Shown: piece after piece, positions 2,385 to 10,133 of the stretch
Layout: each line of letters starts with the position of its first letter
How positions within the stretch are numbered: the stretch's first letter is position 1
Assembly: GCA_963665325.3 (NCBI GenBank)
Contig: OZ224045.1
Location: forward strand, 2,336,001-2,400,000
DNA: 64,000 nt
DNA from: Alphaproteobacteria bacterium
Lineage (GTDB): Bacteria; Pseudomonadota; Alphaproteobacteria; Bin95
Direction of reading: 5' to 3'
Notes under the pieces: model-generated
Databases searched by the model: none
Seen by the model: the letters and a program-made list of their open reading frames with translations, nothing else
What the model was told of the DNA's origin: nothing
Translations under genes and position numbers: made by a program

Positions 2385-2693
2385 GTTGGCACAGGTTTCG
2401 TTCTCGAAAACACGGTCGGCCGATGACGGTCGCGTTCGGCGGGGGCAAGGGAGTTGTCGATATCGAGGAGCTTGCGGGTGAGGCGGTCGATACGGTCGCG
2501 AAGTTCTTTTGCGCAGAGATCGGGCGGAGCTTGTTCTGCTCGACCGGTCGGGGGCAGCGGAAGGGGCCCGTGCGTGGACGGATATGCGCGGGAAGGGAGG
2601 AGCGGCACGGTCTTCGCGTTGACGGCCGGGGAGGGTCGGACCGAAATTGCCGTTTGGATTGTCCGGGCGATGACGGCCGGGGTTGGAACGGGT

Positions 2694-2918
2694 TCAGCGG
2701 ATGGAGACGAAGTCGTCTGTGCTGAGTCCGACCTGGCGGACGATCTGGTGAAGGAGATAGGGAGGCAGATCGCCGGAGCCGTGAACGGGAACGGTGGTGG
2801 CGCGGCCGTCGGGGTGACGGAACCGCTTGTGGGAGCCGCGCTAGCGAACCTCGCGGAAGCCGAGCGCGGTGAGGATCGCGATGACCTCGCTAGGCCCCAG
2901 CGTCGGGGTGCTGGCCAT
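2694..2918 (-). pseudogene. hicA: HicA mRNA-interferase toxin with an in-frame TAG at codon 26
   Basis: MASTPTLGPSEVIAILTALGFREVR*RGSHKRFRHPDGRATTVPVHGSGDLPPYLLHQIVRQVGLSTDDFVSIR*. GSH catalytic motif and TVPVH present; stop at 2841-2843. Confidence 0.85.
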
Positions 2919-2923
2919 GGCGG

Positions 2924-3130
2924 TCAGACGTGGACGGTGTGGGTACCGACGAATTCGGTTTGCGGTTCGCTGTCCTCGTCCTTGAGGATGAGCGTGATGA
3001 CCTCGATCAGGTGGTCGTGGAGCTGGTCGAGGGTGTCGGCGTGGGTATGGGCGCCGGGGAGCGCGGGGACATGGCCGACATATTGCCCGGTGACGGCGCA
3101 CCGTTCGATGATGGCGGTGAAAGTGCGCAT
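2924..3130 (-). CDS. hicB: HicB family antitoxin (short, no DNA-binding domain)
   Basis: MRTFTAIIERCAVTGQYVGHVPALPGAHTHADTLDQLHDHLIEVITLIL; 68 aa, directly upstream of hicA. Confidence 0.85.
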   Translation of the reverse strand: MRTFTAIIERCAVTGQYVGHVPALPGAHTHADTLDQLHDHLIEVITLILKDEDSEPQTEFVGTHTVHV

Positions 3131-3209
3131 GCGGCGCGTTCCTTTCGTTGCAGGGTCGAGTGTACGAGTTGCTCGAATTCGCGCAAGGGTATCGGGTGAG
3201 CGGGCAAGC

Positions 3210-3375
3210 GTGGACGGGCCGGAGGCCGCGGAGAAGCTGGAGGCGAGGATTGCGGAGTTGGAGGCAATGAGGGCCAGCGCTGCGGCGATGTACGAGGAAG
3301 AGACCGGGGAGGTGTGGGCGGCCGGGTGAGTCCCATGTGTCGGCGGACCGTTTGAAGGCAGCGCTTCCAACCGCG
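3210..3375 (+). pseudogene. Possible degraded fragment of a plasmid/ICE leading-region gene (DUF2493/SLOG-like N-terminal part)
   Basis: LEAMRASAAAMYEEETGEVW, then frameshifted GESHVSADRLKAA. Loosely resembles, from recall, MRDAAAxLYExxTGSAWRPxxGSxVxxxxLTAA. Confidence 0.25.
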
Positions 3376-3501
3376 CAATCGATGTGGTTTCCGGGGCGGG
3401 ACCTGTCAACGGACGAATGCTCGGGCCGGTTACTGGATGTTGGACAGCGTCGCCGGGCCAGGTTTATGAAATACTTCGCAGGTACTCGGGAGAAAACGGT
3501 G

Positions 3502-3780
3502 ATGGCGTCAAGGCGGGATCTGGTGATTCGAGTGCGGGAGAAGCTCGATATTACGAACGTGGCGGCTCAGCGGGTCGTGACCGCAGTGGTCGAAGCGCAG
3601 ACGGAACTGCTGGTGGAACGGGAGAGATTACAGGTCAGGGGATTGGGATCGTTCCAGGTGATCGATCATCCCGAAAGACGGGCCCAAAATCCGCATACGC
3701 GTGAGCCGGTCGTGGTCCCGGCCGGCAAGCGGGTGAAGTTCAACGCCTCGAACTCTTTGAGACGTGCGCTCTCCCCATAG
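3502..3780 (+). CDS. HU/IHF family DNA-binding protein (divergent, element-borne)
   Basis: 92 aa; LQVRGLGSFQV...RRAQNPHTREPVVVPAGKRVKFNAS signature. Confidence 0.9.
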   Translation: MASRRDLVIRVREKLDITNVAAQRVVTAVVEAQTELLVERERLQVRGLGSFQVIDHPERRAQNPHTREPVVVPAGKRVKFNASNSLRRALSP

Positions 3781-4027
3781 GGATCGGGAGGGGCTCGGGC
3801 CGGGAGGTCGGCTGCAAGGAACTTTTCGTCGATTCGAGGAGCGCCAGGACGTTCGGGCGTATACGCATTTTCGGCTTGCCCGGTTCGTCGCCCGCGGAAA
3901 GCTCTATGGCATCCAGCAGCCGGGATAGCTGGTGGGCGGCCCTGAGCCGTGCGTAGGGGTGAGAGCTTTCCGTTTCTTCGCGGAGCTCGGTCGCCTTCGC
4001 CAGCAGGGCGGGTTTGAGGTCTTCGGA

Positions 4028-4351
4028 TTGCTCGCAGTGTTCTGCATCCTGAGCTGGCGCGTGTTCTGGTTGACGATGCTCAATCGGACCGAGCCAGACC
4101 TCGAACCGGCTCTCGTGCTGACTGAAATCGAAATCGAGGTGTTCGATCACCTGATCCCGGATCCTGCCGCCGATCCTTCGCCGGCCAGGACGCTCTCGCT
4201 CTATCTCATCAAGATCGCCAAGCTCGGCGGCTATCTCGCCCGGGCCAAGAATCCGCCCCCAGGCAACATCGTCATGTGGCGAGGTCTCTCCCGGTTGAAC
4301 GACATCGCACTTGGTGCCGCCTTGCAAATCAATAATGCAGGTAACTGAAAG
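4028..4351 (+). mobile_element. IS4 family (IS50/Tn5-like) transposase C-terminal remnant with right end
   Basis: LAVFCILSWRVFWLTMLNR...IAKLGGYLARAKNPPPGNIVMWRGL dimerisation domain; ends GGTAACTGAAAG. Confidence 0.85.
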
Positions 4352-4368
4352 CCTCGCCGGATGCATAC

Positions 4369-4430
4369 CCAGCGCTTGAGCATATAGTCCATGGCCTTGG
4401 CGACGGGGGAATGGCGCGACAGCCCGGCGC
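4369..4430 (-). mobile_element. IS66 family transposase (TnpC) micro-fragment
   Basis: AGLSRHSPVAKAMDYMLKRW motif. Confidence 0.7.
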
Positions 4431-4560
4431 TTGGAAGCTGAGCGCGGTCGAGGAGGGCGAGGCGGGGAGCCGTCAAAGCGGCGAGTGCGGTAAATGGGGG
4501 AAGCGAATTCGGCCGGGACGGAGGAGGTCGACCGCGAGAGGCGAACAGGTGTGGACAGGA

Positions 4561-5568
4561 TCAGTCGCTGTTGTTCTGGTCTATCCAGGAAAGGAACTGA
4601 TCTTGTTCGTCAGCCGATGCATTCGACCAAAGGCGTTTCATGCGATCGAGTTTGGTGGGGGGCGCGGCGCCGGGGTCTGAATTGAGGACGGTGGATAGCC
4701 TTTGCGGGGGCGTGTCGCTTTCACGGATGCTTGCTAGAACCTGACGTTGATCGGCTTCAGGCATACCGGAGAGACGGTATAGGTCTCCCTCGCGCTGCGC
4801 GATCGGGGTGTCCGCGAGCGCGTCCTGCAGTTCGGGCAGGATATTCGCGGCGATACGGACGGCGCGTTGTATGGTGCGGGCAGACCAGGGTGTGGAATGC
4901 GTGGTGTCGTCGACGAAGCTGGGCGAGCGCGACTGGTCGTGGAGATCATGTCGCAATGTTTGCGGGTTGGTTTCGGCGGCGGCGTCAGGACCAAGTCGCA
5001 ATGTTTGCGGGTTGGTGCTGTCGAGATATGCTTGGCTTCGACGATCGCCGCCGTGGCGGGTGTCGGGATGAATCCTCTCGTAGAGTTCCTTTCGGCGTTC
5101 GAGAGACCGGGCGCGATCCAACGCTGTCAACTCGGCGCGCATCAGATTCTCGTCGAGTTCGATCAGGCGGATTTCGTCTGGGGTGAATTCGTCGAGGACA
5201 AGGGCTTCGATCCGGGGCCATTTGAGCTCGCGGGCGGCAGCCAGCCGGTGGGCTCCGGCGACCAGCGCGAAGCCCCCGAGGTCGGGGCCGTCATAGACGC
5301 CGGATTCAGGGTTGAGCTCGCGATTGTGGCGGACGAGTACAGGCGACTGGAGACCGCTGGCCTTCATCGATAGGACGAGCTGTTTTACGGTCGTTTCGTC
5401 GATCGAACGAAAGCGGTCGATGATTGCAATATCTTCTACTTCGATGGGATAGGTTTGGCGCTGATATGAGAGGTCTTCGGATGGCGAAGGGGTAGCGCTG
5501 GCGTTTGAGACGGCGCGGCCGCGGGATTGGCGGACGGCGCCGGTGAGTGAGGAAGGCTTGTTGTTCAT
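4561..5568 (-). CDS. parB: ParB/Spo0J N-terminal domain protein
   Basis: GLQSPVLVR, LVAGAHRLAA, ELDENLMRAEL, HGGDRRS and a likely HTH (WSARTIQRAVRI). AGGAG RBS; downstream of parA. Confidence 0.8.
   Translation of the reverse strand: MNNKPSSLTGAVRQSRGRAVSNASATPSPSEDLSYQRQTYPIEVEDIAIIDRFRSIDETTVKQLVLSMKASGLQSPVLVRHNRELNPESGVYDGPDLGGFALVAGAHRLAAARELKWPRIEALVLDEFTPDEIRLIELDENLMRAELTALDRARSLERRKELYERIHPDTRHGGDRRSQAYLDSTNPQTLRLGPDAAAETNPQTLRHDLHDQSRSPSFVDDTTHSTPWSARTIQRAVRIAANILPELQDALADTPIAQREGDLYRLSGMPEADQRQVLASIRESDTPPQRLSTVLNSDPGAAPPTKLDRMKRLWSNASADEQDQFLSWIDQNNSD
4950..5016. repeat. Two exact 22-bp direct repeats inside parB, each with a CGCAA-N3-TTGCG palindrome
   Basis: GTCGCAATGTTTGCGGGTTGGT at 4950-4971 and 4995-5016; encodes TNPQTLR twice. 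Confidence 0.9.
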
Positions 5569-5580
5569 GCTTAGTTCTCC

Positions 5581-6243
5581 TCAGGCTGCGCTGGGTCGGG
5601 CCGGGGTAACGTATGGGTCTGGCAAGGAGATGATGGCGGCCTCCAGCGCGTGGACCTCCGCCGCGGCCTTGCCGTGAGGGTCGAACTCGGTGACTGCTCG
5701 ACCGGAATTGATGGAACGGGTAAATGCGGACCGTTGGGCGATTGACACCGGCGCGACCGGAAGGCCTTCGGCGGCGATGATTTCCCGGGCTTCTAGCGGA
5801 AGCTTTCGCGCGGTGGGAGGGACCGCGTTGAGCACGACGAGTGGTGTCGTGTTTGTGAGCTTGGCGATGTCGGCGCTTGCGCGTATGGCGACAATGTCGA
5901 ACATGGCCGGACGGCACGGGATGAGCACAAGGTCGGCGAGGCGGGCCGCCACAAGGGCGCCGCCGTCAGCGTGGGCGGCCGTGTCAATGATGACCAGAGT
6001 TGCGTGCCTGCGCTGGGCGCGTTCGATTTCCTGAGGCAGACGCACCGGGGGAGAGGATCGGACCTCGGGGTCGGCGTTTGCCCGTAAGTCTCCCCAGATT
6101 GTTGCGGAAGCCTGGGGGTCGGTATCAAGCAGGATCGTCTTGCGACCTGCGGCCGCGGCAGCAACCGAGAGGTTGACGGCGAGGGTAGTCTTTCCGGCGC
6201 CGCCTTTCTGACTGACAATGGCGATGATGTTGATTTCGTTCAT
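5581..6243 (-). CDS. parA: ParA family partition ATPase (short, type Ib/ParF-like)
   Basis: Deviant Walker A KGGAGKTT, DTDPQAS, IIDT. 220 aa with no N-terminal HTH; ATGA overlap with the repC stop. Confidence 0.9.
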   Translation of the reverse strand: MNEINIIAIVSQKGGAGKTTLAVNLSVAAAAAGRKTILLDTDPQASATIWGDLRANADPEVRSSPPVRLPQEIERAQRRHATLVIIDTAAHADGGALVAARLADLVLIPCRPAMFDIVAIRASADIAKLTNTTPLVVLNAVPPTARKLPLEAREIIAAEGLPVAPVSIAQRSAFTRSINSGRAVTEFDPHGKAAAEVHALEAAIISLPDPYVTPARPSAA

Positions 6244-8252
6244 TGGGTAACTCCGGAGACGGGCGGGTTGCTGGAAGGGCGAGCGGCGTGCTTACCGTTT
6301 GCAGCCACGGTGTTGTCGGGTGCGCCGGGTCGGCGCGCGGGGTGGGCGTCGGATGGAATGGTAGAGGGGTCGAGGGCGATCCCCAGGGCCTCCAGCATGG
6401 CGGACGCTGCACGCTCCAGATTGAGAGCATGCTTGCTGGTGCTGGAGATGATTTCGGCGAAGAACTGGCTTGGAGCTTTGCGACAGAGGCCGTGCGAAGC
6501 GCCGGCCGTCACGATGAGCAAGGCGGAAGTTGCCGCGGGTTCTCCAACGGTTGCGCAGGCAGAATGCCATGCGGTGCTTAGAGATGGTTGGCCATTACCG
6601 TGGAAGCCCGCTGTGGACGATAGAATTTGGCGGACGGCGGCCGCGACCTGCGATGGGTCGAGAGGTCTGGGAAAAGGCAGGCTGACTGAATCCGCATAAT
6701 CACCGGAAAGCGTGAGCAGGGCATATTGTTGCTCCAGCGACGGTAGATCGGGGCGAAGACCGGGTTCGGTTCGTCGGGAAGTGGGAGGGCTGGCTTTACG
6801 GGGCGGAGCGATATGCAGAGGTGTGTCGGACTGTGCTGTGGGTAGAAGGGCGTCCCCGTCTTGGCGTTCGCATATGTCGGGGGAGGCCCGGTCGACAACT
6901 CCCCAGAGGGATCTGGCGAGGTTGAGTTGGCCGAGACGGGCCTTGTCGATCATGCCTCGGAGGTAGCCGCCGGGAGATCGGATTTCGCTGGCGTCGAGGC
7001 GCGACGCGATGATGATTATCGCGAGGGCGGCGCCGTCGCGGGTCAGGGCATTGCAGGCTTCGCGCCAGGCGTCGGGGGATATTCCCATGGTGCTTCGGGC
7101 GCGGTTTGCGGCTTCCAGAAGGTCGCTGTTCCCGGGAGGACGGGTTATCGGCAGATGGCAGGCAATGCGAGGGCTCAGGCTATCCAGGACAAGCCATTTG
7201 GGCGGCGCTTGCGGTGAGGAAGACGAGGCGGGGTCGGGGTGACTACATATCCCGCTTTCCGGGGTTGGGCGGGCGGCGGATTCCGGGTCCAGTCGGGGTG
7301 TTTCGGAAAGAGTCGCCGCTACAACATTGTTGATTCGGGAGTGATTTGTATTTGTAATTGACCCTTCCCCGCTTAGGGGGGTGGGTACCCTTCCGAATTC
7401 GTTGTCGGACGCATCCTGACGATGCGGGGAGACGGGGTTGTCGTCAGGTCGCTGGTCGCATTCGGATGTGAATAACGCGTCTACATTTCTCTGGATGCGC
7501 TCGGCAATGGGTTCGAGGGCCTGGAGGGTTTGCAGGTCGGCCTTGTTCAGGCGGGAGCCGGACGGAAGCGCTGTAACGTCGTCGAGCAGCGAGCTGACGA
7601 TAGGGTGAACGATGCGGTCGTTTGACGTTAGCGCGTGGATGCGGTTGAGGGTCAGGCGGCGGATCGCCGAGATACGGTGGCGGAGGCGGATTCTCTCGTT
7701 ACGGAGTTCTTGTATCTGCTTGGCCGCGTTCTCGATGGTCGGGAGGAGGGCTGCCAGGGGTGAGAGGTCGACACCGTAGGAATGGATCAGGCGGCCGGTA
7801 GCCTTGTCGCGCTTGTAGAAGCGTCGGCAGCTTGCGCTGTCGTGCCAATAAATGAGGCCATGACAAGCCAACTCATACTCGATGCGGTCGAGACATTTTG
7901 GGGAGATGGAGAGGTCGTTGCAGGCGCACCACTTGGGGAGGCCCGCGACCGGGCGGGACCCGGGTTGCCAGTCGGGCTTGCGGGTTTGGTCAAAGTGCCA
8001 TTGCAGGACCTTGAGTTGATCTCCGGTCAGGCCGAAGTGTTCGGCTATCGGAGGACGCTTGAGCAAGCGCAGCGACGCCCGGAAATCGAAATCGTCAGGC
8101 ATGCCGGCCCAGGCGTGAGCCGCTAAACGGGCCGCCTCGTGCTCGGGCTTTGGAATCCTTCCCCCTGTCGGGTTCGGGCTGGAGCGGGGTCCGGTCGAGG
8201 ATGCCGGATTGATGGTTCTGTTGTGCTGCATGAGTTTTGGCGCCTGGCGCAT
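6240..8252 (-). CDS. repC: RepC-type plasmid replication initiator, extended (670 aa)
   Basis: N-domain: DW..GSRPV, GLIYWHDSASCRRF, YGVDLSPL. C-domain: MGISPDAWREAC...IRSPGGYLRGMIDKARLGQLNL. A second degenerate C-domain follows (LSTAWHSAC...APSQFFAEIIS...LNLER). Confidence 0.85.
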   Translation of the reverse strand: MRQAPKLMQHNRTINPASSTGPRSSPNPTGGRIPKPEHEAARLAAHAWAGMPDDFDFRASLRLLKRPPIAEHFGLTGDQLKVLQWHFDQTRKPDWQPGSRPVAGLPKWCACNDLSISPKCLDRIEYELACHGLIYWHDSASCRRFYKRDKATGRLIHSYGVDLSPLAALLPTIENAAKQIQELRNERIRLRHRISAIRRLTLNRIHALTSNDRIVHPIVSSLLDDVTALPSGSRLNKADLQTLQALEPIAERIQRNVDALFTSECDQRPDDNPVSPHRQDASDNEFGRVPTPLSGEGSITNTNHSRINNVVAATLSETPRLDPESAARPTPESGICSHPDPASSSSPQAPPKWLVLDSLSPRIACHLPITRPPGNSDLLEAANRARSTMGISPDAWREACNALTRDGAALAIIIIASRLDASEIRSPGGYLRGMIDKARLGQLNLARSLWGVVDRASPDICERQDGDALLPTAQSDTPLHIAPPRKASPPTSRRTEPGLRPDLPSLEQQYALLTLSGDYADSVSLPFPRPLDPSQVAAAVRQILSSTAGFHGNGQPSLSTAWHSACATVGEPAATSALLIVTAGASHGLCRKAPSQFFAEIISSTSKHALNLERAASAMLEALGIALDPSTIPSDAHPARRPGAPDNTVAANGKHAARPSSNPPVSGVTQ
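7279..7362. other. Putative intragenic replication origin (oriV) in repC
   Basis: AT-rich run ACAACATTGTTGATTC...GATTTGTATTTGTAATTG, with three GANTC sites (7279, 7310, 7332) in the inter-domain linker. Confidence 0.45.
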
Positions 8253-8291
8253 TCATGCTCGATCACAGCTCCCATTTTTTTTCAAACTGGC

Positions 8292-8321
8292 TTGACTAAG
8301 GCCAAGCAAGTCCGTTACCTT
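8292..8321 (+). promoter_or_regulatory. sigma70-like promoter antisense to the repC leader
   Basis: TTGACT at 8292-8297, then 17-18 bp, then TTACCT/TACCTT. Same position as ctRNA promoters upstream of repC. Confidence 0.55.
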
Positions 8322-8325
8322 CCGC

Positions 8326-8444
8326 GATAGTGAGGTCGCAGGAGGTCTTTGTCCCTCTATTGGGGATTGGGGCCGATGGTTGAGCCTAGTCCGTTTGACG
8401 GACATAAGGCGGGGAGCTTTGCAAGAGGGCTCCCCGCTTTTTTT
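8326..8444 (+). ncRNA. Putative counter-transcribed RNA (ctRNA) controlling repC
   Basis: Lies between the antisense promoter and a strong intrinsic terminator, immediately upstream of repC. 5' end estimated. Confidence 0.55.
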
Positions 8445-8450
8445 ATGTCC
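8400..8450 (+). terminator. Rho-independent terminator
   Basis: GCGGGGAGC...GCTCCCCGC stem followed by TTTTTTT; extendable by GGACATA/TATGTCC. Confidence 0.8.
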
Positions 8451-8504
8451 TTGAACGGGTGAGATTTTGCCGGACTTGTCTCCTACCCGCGCGTGTGCCT
8501 ATAC

Positions 8505-8786
8505 TCACCGAACTGTGGTGGTGTAGTCGCGCTCGAAATCGCCCATCGCGCAGTTGTGCACATGGACATGTGCGCCCGCCTCGACCGGTTCGCTAGCAAA
8601 CCCGATGATCTGGTCGTACTTGCGGACCGGTTCGCCGACGGATATCGGCCGCGTCGCGATCTTGTGGCCGGCCGGCACGACATCCACCGCGGTGACGTCC
8701 TCGCCGGGAATCTCAATTCCAGAGAGGATATCGACGCGCGCGACGACCACATTGTCTTCGGGTGCAAGGCGGATGGAGAGGGTCAT
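8505..8786 (-). pseudogene. UxaA/altronate dehydratase N-terminal SAF domain, probably truncated
   Basis: IRLAPEDNVVVA...PAGHKIA...GEPVRKYDQIIG...HVHVHNC. Continues into the linker (GDFERDY) and then stops. No catalytic-domain gene follows. Confidence 0.7.
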
Positions 8787-8801
8787 GGGCTATGGGTCCT
8801 T

Positions 8802-10133
8802 CTAGGCGGCGAGCAGGTTGTGGAGTTCGCCGGCGCGGCCGGGCGCATCGAAGTCCCAGGCGAGCGCACTCAGAGCCTCGGCCGCATCGCCGAGCGCCGG
8901 CTCGGCGAGCGCGTGGAACTTGGCGTCGAGGTCGGCGCGCGAGAGGGGATTGCCGGGATTGCCGCGCGCAAGCAATGTTTCGCGCCGGTCTGCGCCGCCG
9001 TCCAGCCACTGAACCTCCAGCACAGCGGAGCGAGTGTCCCGGCCGGGTTCGGCGACCGGCTCGACGCGGGTAAGCATGGCTCGCAGCCCGGAATCGGCCA
9101 GCGTCTCGGCGGTAAAGTCTCCTTCCACCGCCGGGCGGCCGGCAAGGCCCAGCGCCGTGCAGAAAGCCAGGCTGAATTTGCCTTCGAGCGGGGTTTGCGG
9201 ATCCGCCTTGCCGGCGAGCCGGATTGCGGCCGGGTTGACACGAACTTCGACGCGCACCGCTTCGCGGCCGGACGCCTCCGGCGCCAGCGCGCGCGCGGCG
9301 TCGATGACAGGATGGGTCAGGAGGCAGGCGGCATAGGGCTTGACCGTATTGCGCAACAACTCCCAGCCATCGTCGAAATCGACCGCGTCGATGGTCGCCG
9401 CTCCATCCTGCACAAGTGCGCTCCCGAGCCCGTCTTCGGTTTCGAGCAGCGTCTCGGACGCTTCGAAGCCGGCGGCCGCCAGTTCGGCTGCCAACACGCC
9501 GTTCATCGCCGCCTTGCCGGCATGGAAGGGCTTGGCGTGGGTGCCGAAAGAGCCGGTCAGGCCGCCGGCCTGCGTGGCGGCGGCGCCGAGCGCGCGGGCG
9601 ATACCGTCCTCGTCGAGTTTCAGCAGCACCGAGGCGGCAACCGCGGCGCCGAGCGCGCCGAAAATGCCGGTCGAATGCCAGCCGCGAAGATTTGCCACCC
9701 CGCCGATGCCGTTGCCGAGGCGCGCGCCCGATTCGAAGCCGGCGATGAACGCGGCCATCATCTCCCGGCCTTCGGCTCCGGCCTGCTGTCCCACGGCCAG
9801 GGTCGCCGACCAGACCGGCGCGGAAAGATGCGCCGTCGCGCCGACATGGGTGTCGTCATAGTCGAGGCAGTGGGCGAAGGTGCCGTTCACCAGGGCGGCG
9901 CCGGCGGCGCAGGTCGTGCCGCCAAGCGCGATGCGCGCCCTGCCTGCGGCCTGCCAACTCTCGACGACGCGCCGCACGGCCTTGCCGCCCGGCTCGCCGC
10001 GCGCGCCGAGCGTGACCCCCAACGTATCCAGCAGGCACGCCCTGGCGGCTTCCAGAACCTCGGGAGGCCAGTTTCGTCCGGGTGCCGCAGCCGCCCACGA
10101 CGCCACGCGCCGGATCGTGTCGTTTCCGCCCAT
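8802..10133 (-). CDS. MmgE/PrpD family protein
   Basis: NGTFAHCLDYDDTH, GWHSTG, KPFHAG, KPYAACLLTH. Confidence 0.9.
   Translation of the reverse strand: MGGNDTIRRVASWAAAAPGRNWPPEVLEAARACLLDTLGVTLGARGEPGGKAVRRVVESWQAAGRARIALGGTTCAAGAALVNGTFAHCLDYDDTHVGATAHLSAPVWSATLAVGQQAGAEGREMMAAFIAGFESGARLGNGIGGVANLRGWHSTGIFGALGAAVAASVLLKLDEDGIARALGAAATQAGGLTGSFGTHAKPFHAGKAAMNGVLAAELAAAGFEASETLLETEDGLGSALVQDGAATIDAVDFDDGWELLRNTVKPYAACLLTHPVIDAARALAPEASGREAVRVEVRVNPAAIRLAGKADPQTPLEGKFSLAFCTALGLAGRPAVEGDFTAETLADSGLRAMLTRVEPVAEPGRDTRSAVLEVQWLDGGADRRETLLARGNPGNPLSRADLDAKFHALAEPALGDAAEALSALAWDFDAPGRAGELHNLLAA

Follow-up and report, generated by a model that had tools for sequence, protein, structure and literature searches.

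The repC-parA-parB locus

The window analysed here is a stretch of 64,000 nucleotides (C1:2336001-2400000) from an alphaproteobacterial genome of 5.58 Mb in five contigs (C1 to C5), referred to below as G000. Near its left end it carries three genes of plasmid type, repC, parA and parB, which probably represent what is left of an integrative and conjugative element (ICE). All three were located on the minus strand. Gene repC (6240-8252) encodes a protein of 670 residues with an RP-C domain (residues 69-203) and an RP-C_C domain (residues 360-453), followed by a C-terminal extension of about 215 residues; RepC relatives begin at the position of M8 (8231 in the window). Gene parA (5581-6243) shares four nucleotides (ATGA) with repC and encodes a short ParA-type partition ATPase of 220 residues. 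Twelve nucleotides separate its stop from the start of parB (4561-5568), whose product of 335 residues is a ParB_N protein with an HGGDRRS motif, of a type known from Mu-like phages of alphaproteobacteria. The three intact, co-oriented open reading frames (ORFs) with repC in first position, as described in the initial annotation, were thus confirmed at 4561-8252. The G+C content was 61-63 % between 3 and 9 kb of the window and 66-71 % in the flanks.

Profile searches placed the first two proteins at the domain level. RepC scored 66.8 bits against RP-C (PF03428, cut-off 24.4) and 91.6 bits against RP-C_C (PF11800, cut-off 32.6), both well above their thresholds, while its 147.3 bits against the NCBIfam equivalog RepABC_RepC (NF040974) remained three bits under the cut-off of 150. 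The RepC paralogue on contig C3 reached 160.8 bits against the same model. ParA obtained 59.5 bits against CbiA and 169.2 bits against ParA_partition (NF041546, cut-off 180); its 34 bits against RepA (TIGR03453, cut-off 348) ruled out the RepA type. ParB scored 33 bits against RepB (TIGR03454, cut-off 201.5) and only weakly against ParB_N (20.3 bits, cut-off 26.3). It displayed an end-to-end match to PHROG 3264, annotated as 'ParB-like partition protein' (E = 5e-49), and its relatives included 11 records from Mu-like phages of alphaproteobacteria and only three, weakly matching, plasmid records. Gene order, the RepA and RepB scores and PHROG 3264 together bore out the original view of a module distinct from repABC, with reversed order, a short ParA and a phage-like ParB.

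The C-terminal extension of RepC may be a degenerate second copy of RP-C_C: a pairwise comparison with this domain gave a score of 51, against 28 +/- 5 for 500 shuffled sequences, and hhalign returned a probability of 81 % over only 15 columns. Within parB, a 45-nucleotide tandem duplication (4944-5016) doubled the peptide TNPQTLR and contained a 28-nucleotide repeat (93 % identical) with a small palindrome. The two copies of this repeat were considered as a parS candidate and rejected as a centromere, the palindrome being present in none of 46 other loci; the duplication itself was likewise found in none of them, the parB gene of the relative G016 included.

Integration into uxaA

Right of the module, between prpD and repC, lay the 5' part of a uxaA gene (8505-8786, minus strand). 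It comprised codons 1-89 of a UxaA-family dehydratase (a sugar-acid dehydratase), followed by four element-derived codons and a stop, which together form an ORF of 93 codons; as a query it matched residues 1-89 only. An intact uxaA of 505 codons was present in a genome of the same genus (locus L029), and homologous frames of 510-861 residues were found in 14 out of 15 same-genus genomes, the fifteenth (G015, 244 residues) ending at the edge of a short contig; uxaA was counted as intact in all 15. The remaining ~415 codons were absent from G000 according to tblastn and a whole-genome search, in which codons 1-89 were the sole match.

Alignment of the intact gene with the G000 junction and both junctions of G016, an independent single-contig genome, delimited a recombination core of 14 bp shared with attB (8523-8536; TCGAGCGCGACTAC read on the minus strand). 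Identity to intact uxaA stopped at this core, and element DNA extended leftwards from ~8522. Next to it was a terminal inverted-repeat arm (8510-8521; CTGTGGTGGTGT on the plus strand), of which the complementary arm was present at the left junction of G016; following on the core, the arm reads ACACCACCACAG, and its reverse complement occupied the opposite end of the G016 element. Of 12 aligned loci, 10 displayed the arm, while for the C3 copy and G001 the stretch extracted stopped short of it. A core flanked by inverted arms is the layout to be expected of a serine-recombinase attachment (att) site, and we read it as such. The start of repC was only ~270 bp away from the recombination junction.

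The chromosomal context proposed initially proved real on the right side, where prpD, a major facilitator superfamily transporter, a polyhydroxybutyrate (PHB) depolymerase, a gene of the dihydrodipicolinate synthase family, tctC and serS formed an ordinary chromosomal neighbourhood. The junction, first suspected at 8450-8520, was also real, although shifted to ~8523-8536. Short-read contigs from two public sequencing runs, X1 (4401-8686) and X3 (7579-8679), spanned it with no differences, which makes a mis-assembly very unlikely; both stem from one study, perhaps the source of the assembly itself, and do not count as independent support. Contigs from runs X4 and X5 contained exact pieces of the module, none of the listed pieces crossing the junction. 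The same junction sequence was carried by G016.

Sibling elements in the same genome and in relatives

Besides three loci of the repC-parA-parB type, G000 contained a parA-parB locus associated with another initiator. One sibling was a clean insertion of 44.9 kb in a CoA-transferase gene on C3 (C3:580737-625626; hereafter the 45-kb sibling). Both gene halves were present, and orthologous matches to the gene (87-94 % identical, open frames of 422-519 residues) were found in 15 out of 16 other same-genus genomes. The ends of this element rebuilt a palindromic attP. It started with a PilN-like secretin and two insertion sequence (IS) copies, followed by Gp49, SSB, a PAPS reductase, a Strawberry-notch fragment and RadC. 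Its middle part displayed a ParB_N protein of 789 residues, a DUF7146-Toprim protein, a YAcAr protein and HU, and it ended with a large serine recombinase of 716 residues, a helix-turn-helix (HTH) protein, ParBs, ParA and RepC.

The second RepC-bearing sibling, of ~157 kb (C1 ~1970230-2126890), followed the same gene order and displayed the terminal arm at both ends (CCACCACAG/CTGTGGTGG). It additionally encoded PilQ, TraI, TraJ/DotB, DotI, a TrbI/DotG-like protein and an ATPase-like protein of ~1000 residues. Between its repC and parA (C1:2119429-2124081; L023:4429-9081) were two ORFs of 303 and 673 codons with RP-C_C as their only domain, a Phd/PIN toxin-antitoxin pair and an AAA_33 kinase-like gene. 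The third large copy, of 92 kb (C3 ~455000-547200; L027 and beyond), was a mirror image located in a gene of the isocitrate/isopropylmalate dehydrogenase family. Where RepC would be expected, it encoded a DnaA_N-domain protein of 654 residues; next came ParA, ParB, DUF5131 and a serine recombinase, together with a complete set of type IVB secretion system (T4BSS) and pilus genes. Since a DnaA_N protein stood in place of RepC, the initiator module appears to be exchangeable.

In G016, the 3' part of uxaA was found 720 kb away from the repC end, in inverted orientation and abutting pilus and transfer genes, namely homologues of PilN, PilQ, PilS, PilV-like protein, TraI, DotB/TraJ, IcmT/TraK, DotI, DotG/TraO and TraQ. 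The element of G016 was thus split by a large inversion. According to Guglielmini et al. 2011 (PMC3158045), a mating-pair formation (MPF) system is assigned to type MPF_I by at least four type-specific genes among TraIKLMNPQRWY. TraI (PF16932), TraK/IcmT (57.4 bits, cut-off 40), TraM/DotI and TraQ were all present in G016, in addition to TraO/DotG and TraJ/DotB, an assignment that holds for the family and not for the window copy. Mating-pair genes of the type IV secretion system (T4SS) were encountered in the 157-kb and 92-kb siblings, in G016 and in the related genome G012. Att junctions were identified at both ends of the 45-kb sibling, the G016 element and the 157-kb sibling. Globally, the 45-kb and 157-kb siblings shared a common plan, in which PilN and the group of large serine recombinase, ParB(s), ParA and RepC occupied opposite ends and inverted-repeat att arms formed the extremities.

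Two further observations concern the region downstream of parB. In G012 (C1:2315908-2436000; L048-L054), a second element with PilN, T4BSS genes, serine recombinase, ParB and ParA lay immediately beyond the three parB genes that belong to a RepC-type element. Homology likewise broke off at the extreme 3' end of parB in G000 and G016, and the DNA downstream of this gene may be a hot spot for rearrangement or insertion.

State of the window copy

Left of parB, the window contained a succession of remnants. About 210 bp of unique sequence directly adjacent to parB were followed by the remains of an IS of the Tn5 family (4029-4351; Pfam Dimer_Tnp_Tn5; 77 % nucleotide matches on C4 and C5), which replaced most of a recombinase gene. 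Only the last ~94 codons of this gene, coding for a large serine recombinase, were left (3749-4030, minus strand); they were 72 % identical to residues 621-714 of the 716-residue recombinase of the 45-kb sibling, which displays Resolvase and Recombinase domains. An HU-like DNA-binding gene (3475-3780, plus strand; Pfam Bac_DNA_binding) was 77 % identical to the HU gene located beside the sibling recombinase. Further left, an element segment of 597 bp (2602-3198) was 95 % identical at the nucleotide level to C3:604440-605037 within the 45-kb sibling. The ~10 kb which separate the counterpart of this segment from the HU gene in the sibling were missing in the window. The recombinase remnant, the HU gene and the 95 %-identical segment tie the window copy to the 45-kb sibling.

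As an ICE, the window copy lacks a functional recombinase, whereas sibling copies encode full-length ones; no T4SS or mating-pair genes were left in it, and the left att junction was absent from G000. It is thus a stump of ~6 kb devoid of recombinase, second att site and transfer genes, and unable to excise. With the recombinase gutted, and with G000 lacking the half that carries pilus and T4SS genes as well as the second att site and the remainder of uxaA, repC-parA-parB was stranded in the chromosome. That this copy is a truncated remnant was not visible to the initial annotation.

The leftmost part of the window consisted of other mobile and duplicated DNA. Positions 1-625 were the end of a ~4.4-kb transposon continuing upstream on C1 (L003:16241-20000), which encoded an HTH_23 protein, an rve transposase of 491 residues and an AAA_22 ATPase of 277 residues. 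This transposon was present in more than 25 copies, 99.8-100 % identical, on all five contigs, and several copies disrupted ICE genes. It was followed by an adhesin-gene fragment (626-1528), 94 % identical at the nucleotide level to the 3' end of a giant gene for a Calx-beta/SRCR/cadherin-like surface protein. That 3' end lies 11 kb upstream (C1:2324402-2325304); the fragment was cut off by the transposon just described, and diverged copies occurred elsewhere in the genome. Still further upstream, a patch of low G+C content (C1:2316002-2319028; L003:2-3028) encoded a ThiF-JAB fusion, a prokaryotic E2 (family E) and an SDH-type ClpP-like protease, a set with the look of ubiquitin-like conjugation of the defence type.

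Copies of the element (C3:580737-625626, C1:~2085000-2127000 and ~3000-8500 of the window) were alone in displaying a GC skew, which amounted to +0.1 to +0.29 when read on the strand opposite to repC; the chromosomal flanks were near zero. In the C3 copy it followed the att-defined boundaries; unidirectional replication or transfer may be its cause.

Candidate control RNA and origin

The region between the att arm and repC (8253-8509, minus strand) formed a leader with conserved hairpins and a TTGA(C/A) box. This leader (~270 bp) was 88 % identical between G000 and G016, while synonymous sites of the flanking genes differed more (proportion of differing sites, pS, 0.33-0.36). On the plus strand, antisense to repC, a GC-rich terminator-like hairpin followed by seven T residues (8395-8455) was identified as the candidate 3' end of a counter-transcribed RNA (ctRNA). 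In an alignment of 12 loci, the antisense layout consisted of two hairpins, the GC-rich hairpin with its T-rich run and the TTGA(C/A) box; hairpin and run occupied identical columns in all 12. A simple fold scan gave its best placement on the GC-rich hairpin in six loci (those of the window, C3, G011, G006, G001 and, weakly at -6.2 kcal/mol, G016) and on a weaker neighbouring hairpin in the other six, placements ranging from 142 to 237 nucleotides upstream of repC. At least one double change was displayed by 14 of the 36 consensus pairs. A (CTTG)n(GCGAA)n microsatellite occurred in the leader of the C3 copy (L026 ~5430-5480) and of G001 (L021), and was absent in the other ten aligned loci.

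Within repC, the linker between the two domains coincided with an A+T-rich dip (7278-7412; 49-50 % G+C, against 63 % for the gene), considered as a candidate origin of replication (oriV). The 90-nucleotide stretch of lowest G+C was found at repC nucleotides 795-885 in all 14 loci scanned, 12 of which were distinct, with 40-53 % against 63-69 % for the gene, the conserved dip as a whole spanning nucleotides ~795-975. By analogy with repABC replicons, a ctRNA ending at the antisense terminator would control repC, and the A+T-rich core of repC would contain the origin. In the Rhizobium etli plasmid p42d, oriV is reported to lie in the A+T-rich central part of repC, where silent changes raising the G+C content abolish replication, and RepC to act in cis and as an incompatibility factor (PMC3155836).

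Distribution of the module

A word-indexed search of 5.8 billion proteins returned 19 RepC matches, of which 11 were close, with identities of 93 % (one protein), 59 % (one) and 38-40 % (nine). The 93 %-identical protein, also of 670 residues, was encoded on a contig of 5.4 Mb. Where contig size was informative, close relatives were located on contigs measuring 297 kb to 5.6 Mb, or else on the long contigs of genomes that are nearly complete; the remaining ones were on contigs of 2-25 kb from metagenome-assembled genomes, which are uninformative on replicon type. Every copy that could be delimited sat within an integrated element. In whole-genome searches, RepC relatives were encountered in 10 out of 16 same-genus genomes and in none of 24 genomes outside the genus. 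The order repC-parA-parB, for which a neighbourhood survey had been proposed, was found in all three close loci retrieved (L007-L009), where two to four ParB paralogues often stood in tandem, and also in the two other repC copies of G000. In PLSDB, the best RepC matches were 26-30 % identical over approximately two thirds of the protein and none of 296 records covered 80 % of it. Literature searches for RepC with ICE and serine recombinase, and for MPFI with ICE and Alphaproteobacteria, yielded nothing relevant by title or abstract, which is no proof that the family is undescribed.

Interpretation

We consider repC-parA-parB to be the replication-and-partition end of a decayed ICE, with a probability of roughly 0.8. 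The element would belong to a family of one alphaproteobacterial genus which inserts into protein-coding genes by means of a large serine recombinase and combines MPF_I-like conjugation genes with a type IVb pilus. Its origin as an integrated element is supported by the split uxaA with an att-type junction, by the recombinase remnant and by the siblings which display both ends and IncI-like conjugation genes. After excision, RepC would initiate theta replication of the circle from the A+T-rich origin inside its own gene, a ctRNA transcribed from the conserved leader would restrain this replication, and the short ParA with the ParB-like protein would segregate the circle until transfer or re-integration. 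The window copy is no longer able to run this cycle.

Several observations weigh against this interpretation. ParB scored under the curated Pfam and TIGRFAM cut-offs, and a search for a parS site serving ParA and ParB found none. An Rfam scan of positions 3500-9000 (E <= 10) returned no ctRNA match, only five chance-level hits, and for the proposed oriV and ctRNA base composition and structure were the sole basis. No copy contained a relaxase, a coupling protein or an oriT recognised in Pfam and NCBIfam scans covering the ORFs of the siblings and of G016, among which several of 601-1440 codons received no assignment; the term conjugative is therefore based on the mating-pair genes, and the conjugative nature of the family is well supported, not complete. 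Every copy examined displayed a rearrangement or an IS insertion, and for all copies excision, replication and partition are inferred from their sequence. Finally, synonymous divergence between G000 and G016 reached dS values of 0.69-0.89 in the module and only 0.43-0.48 in the flanks, which makes the shared site compatible with a single old insertion into uxaA as well as with two independent ones.

An alternative is that the stranded genes were domesticated and now serve the host or resident elements, RepC/ParB incompatibility excluding related ICEs or the locus acting as an auxiliary origin or partition site. G000 and G016 share the chromosomal site of the module and both have its three ORFs intact, the 93 %-identical RepC sits on a 5.4-Mb contig, the leader retained its 88 % identity while synonymous sites of the flanks differ at 33-36 %, and the incompatibility exerted by p42d RepC offers a precedent (PMC3155836). 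Ratios of nonsynonymous to synonymous divergence (dN/dS) between the two genomes were 0.30 for RepC, 0.15 for ParA and 0.23 for ParB, against 0.09-0.23 for five flanking genes. According to these low values, the three proteins have been under purifying selection in the past; such ratios nevertheless average in the mobile period and say nothing firm on present selection. Moreover, sequences left of parB differ between G000 and G016, which indicates independent decay after parB, as ordinary erosion would give, and three other family members in G000 hold modules of their own. Retention for a host function is therefore judged unlikely.

The initial annotation had left the choice between an integrated plasmid or ICE and a new replicon class. 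The first part was supported by the split target, the att junction, the recombinase remnant and the siblings; the second was not, informative relatives being found on large contigs and delimited copies within integrated elements. A plasmid that had integrated, that represented a new replicon class and that had no relation to conjugative elements would fit the gene order and the partners, both unlike repABC, as well as the low identity and coverage of RepC in PLSDB and the three weak plasmid matches of ParB. However, informative relatives reside on contigs of 297 kb to 5.6 Mb and none on plasmid-sized closed records, the module is edged by the serine-recombinase att arm common to siblings with T4BSS and pilus genes, and plasmids of the pACMV2 type already pair repC with short parA and parB nearby, all of which renders this explanation highly improbable. 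For an assembly chimera at ~8450-8540 nothing was found in favour, and the unchanged passage of X1 and X3 (albeit from a single study) and the identical junction in G016 reduce its probability to a negligible level.

With the decayed ICE as the preferred reading, the apparent plasmid replicon in the chromosome resolves as ordinary ICE biology. The RepC type of initiator, familiar from repABC plasmids and chromids, would then be able to provide an integrating conjugative element with its maintenance replicon, and the conserved leader and the A+T-rich core would provide concrete ctRNA and origin candidates outside classic repABC. Less common traits of the family are its IncI/Dot-Icm-like conjugation genes, the insertion of its serine recombinase into metabolic genes and its modular initiator. 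Being multi-copy, rearranged and riddled with IS elements, the family has a part in gene loss and in large inversions, one of which spans 720 kb in a relative. A bolder picture, to which we attach little credence, would have the genus, of uncultured type, host MPF_I ICEs of 45 to more than 150 kb with swappable theta initiators (RepC with internal origin and ctRNA-like control, or a DnaA_N type), each combined with a short ParA and a ParB of Mu-phage type; the copy stranded intact at the same site in at least two species might then be under selection for a role in incompatibility or exclusion, or for use as an auxiliary origin.

Comparison with known systems

A close plasmid counterpart was pACMV2 of Acidiphilium multivorum, in which repC is followed on the same strand, within ~1 kb, by genes for a ParA-like ATPase of 219 residues and a ParB. 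The earlier statement that repC-only replicons lack linked par genes was consequently too strong. The pACMV2 proteins are distant (RepC 30 % and ParA 36 % identical to those of the window), a toxin-antitoxin pair lies between its repC and parA, its ParB is small (113 residues) and, unlike the window module, it is a free conjugative plasmid.

With the repABC replicon of p42d the module shared both RepC domains, the A+T-rich middle of repC where p42d has its oriV, and an antisense terminator-like element just upstream of repC, where repABC is reported to encode its ctRNA (PMC3155836). It differed in that repC came first and not last, so that the order repA-repB-repC was not encountered. In addition, ParA had 220 residues against ~400 for RepA, ParB was of the phage-type ParB_N and not RepB, RepC displayed the C-terminal extension of ~215 residues, Rfam provided no ctRNA match, and the module resided within an integrating element and not on a free plasmid or chromid.

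The conjugation genes pointed to IncI1 plasmid R64 and Dot-Icm (MPF_I) systems. Siblings and the G016 copy contained homologues of TraI, TraJ/DotB, TraK/IcmT, TraM/DotI, TraO/DotG and TraQ, in addition to genes of a type IVb pilus (PilN, PilQ, PilS and PilV-like). In contrast to R64, these copies are chromosomal, integrated and alphaproteobacterial, and the window copy retained none of these genes. Chromosomal MPF_I systems were reported to be rare (Guglielmini et al. 2011, PMC3158045).

Replication and partition modules in ICEs are already known, and what the window contains is a remnant of one. For other ICE families it is established that the excised form replicates and is partitioned (PMC5812530; PMC5587801). 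As in SXT/R391 and in MPF_T and MPF_G ICEs, replication and partition genes were co-localised near one edge, where they presumably stabilise the excised form (PMC5587801, PMC5812530). In the survey of Cury et al. 2017 (PMC5587801), theta-type replication proteins were reported for 16 out of 200 ICEs, 15 of them MPF_T, one MPF_G and none MPF_I. Unlike these surveyed ICEs, the family described here combines MPF_I-like conjugation genes and a large serine recombinase targeting coding genes with an initiator of the RepC type.

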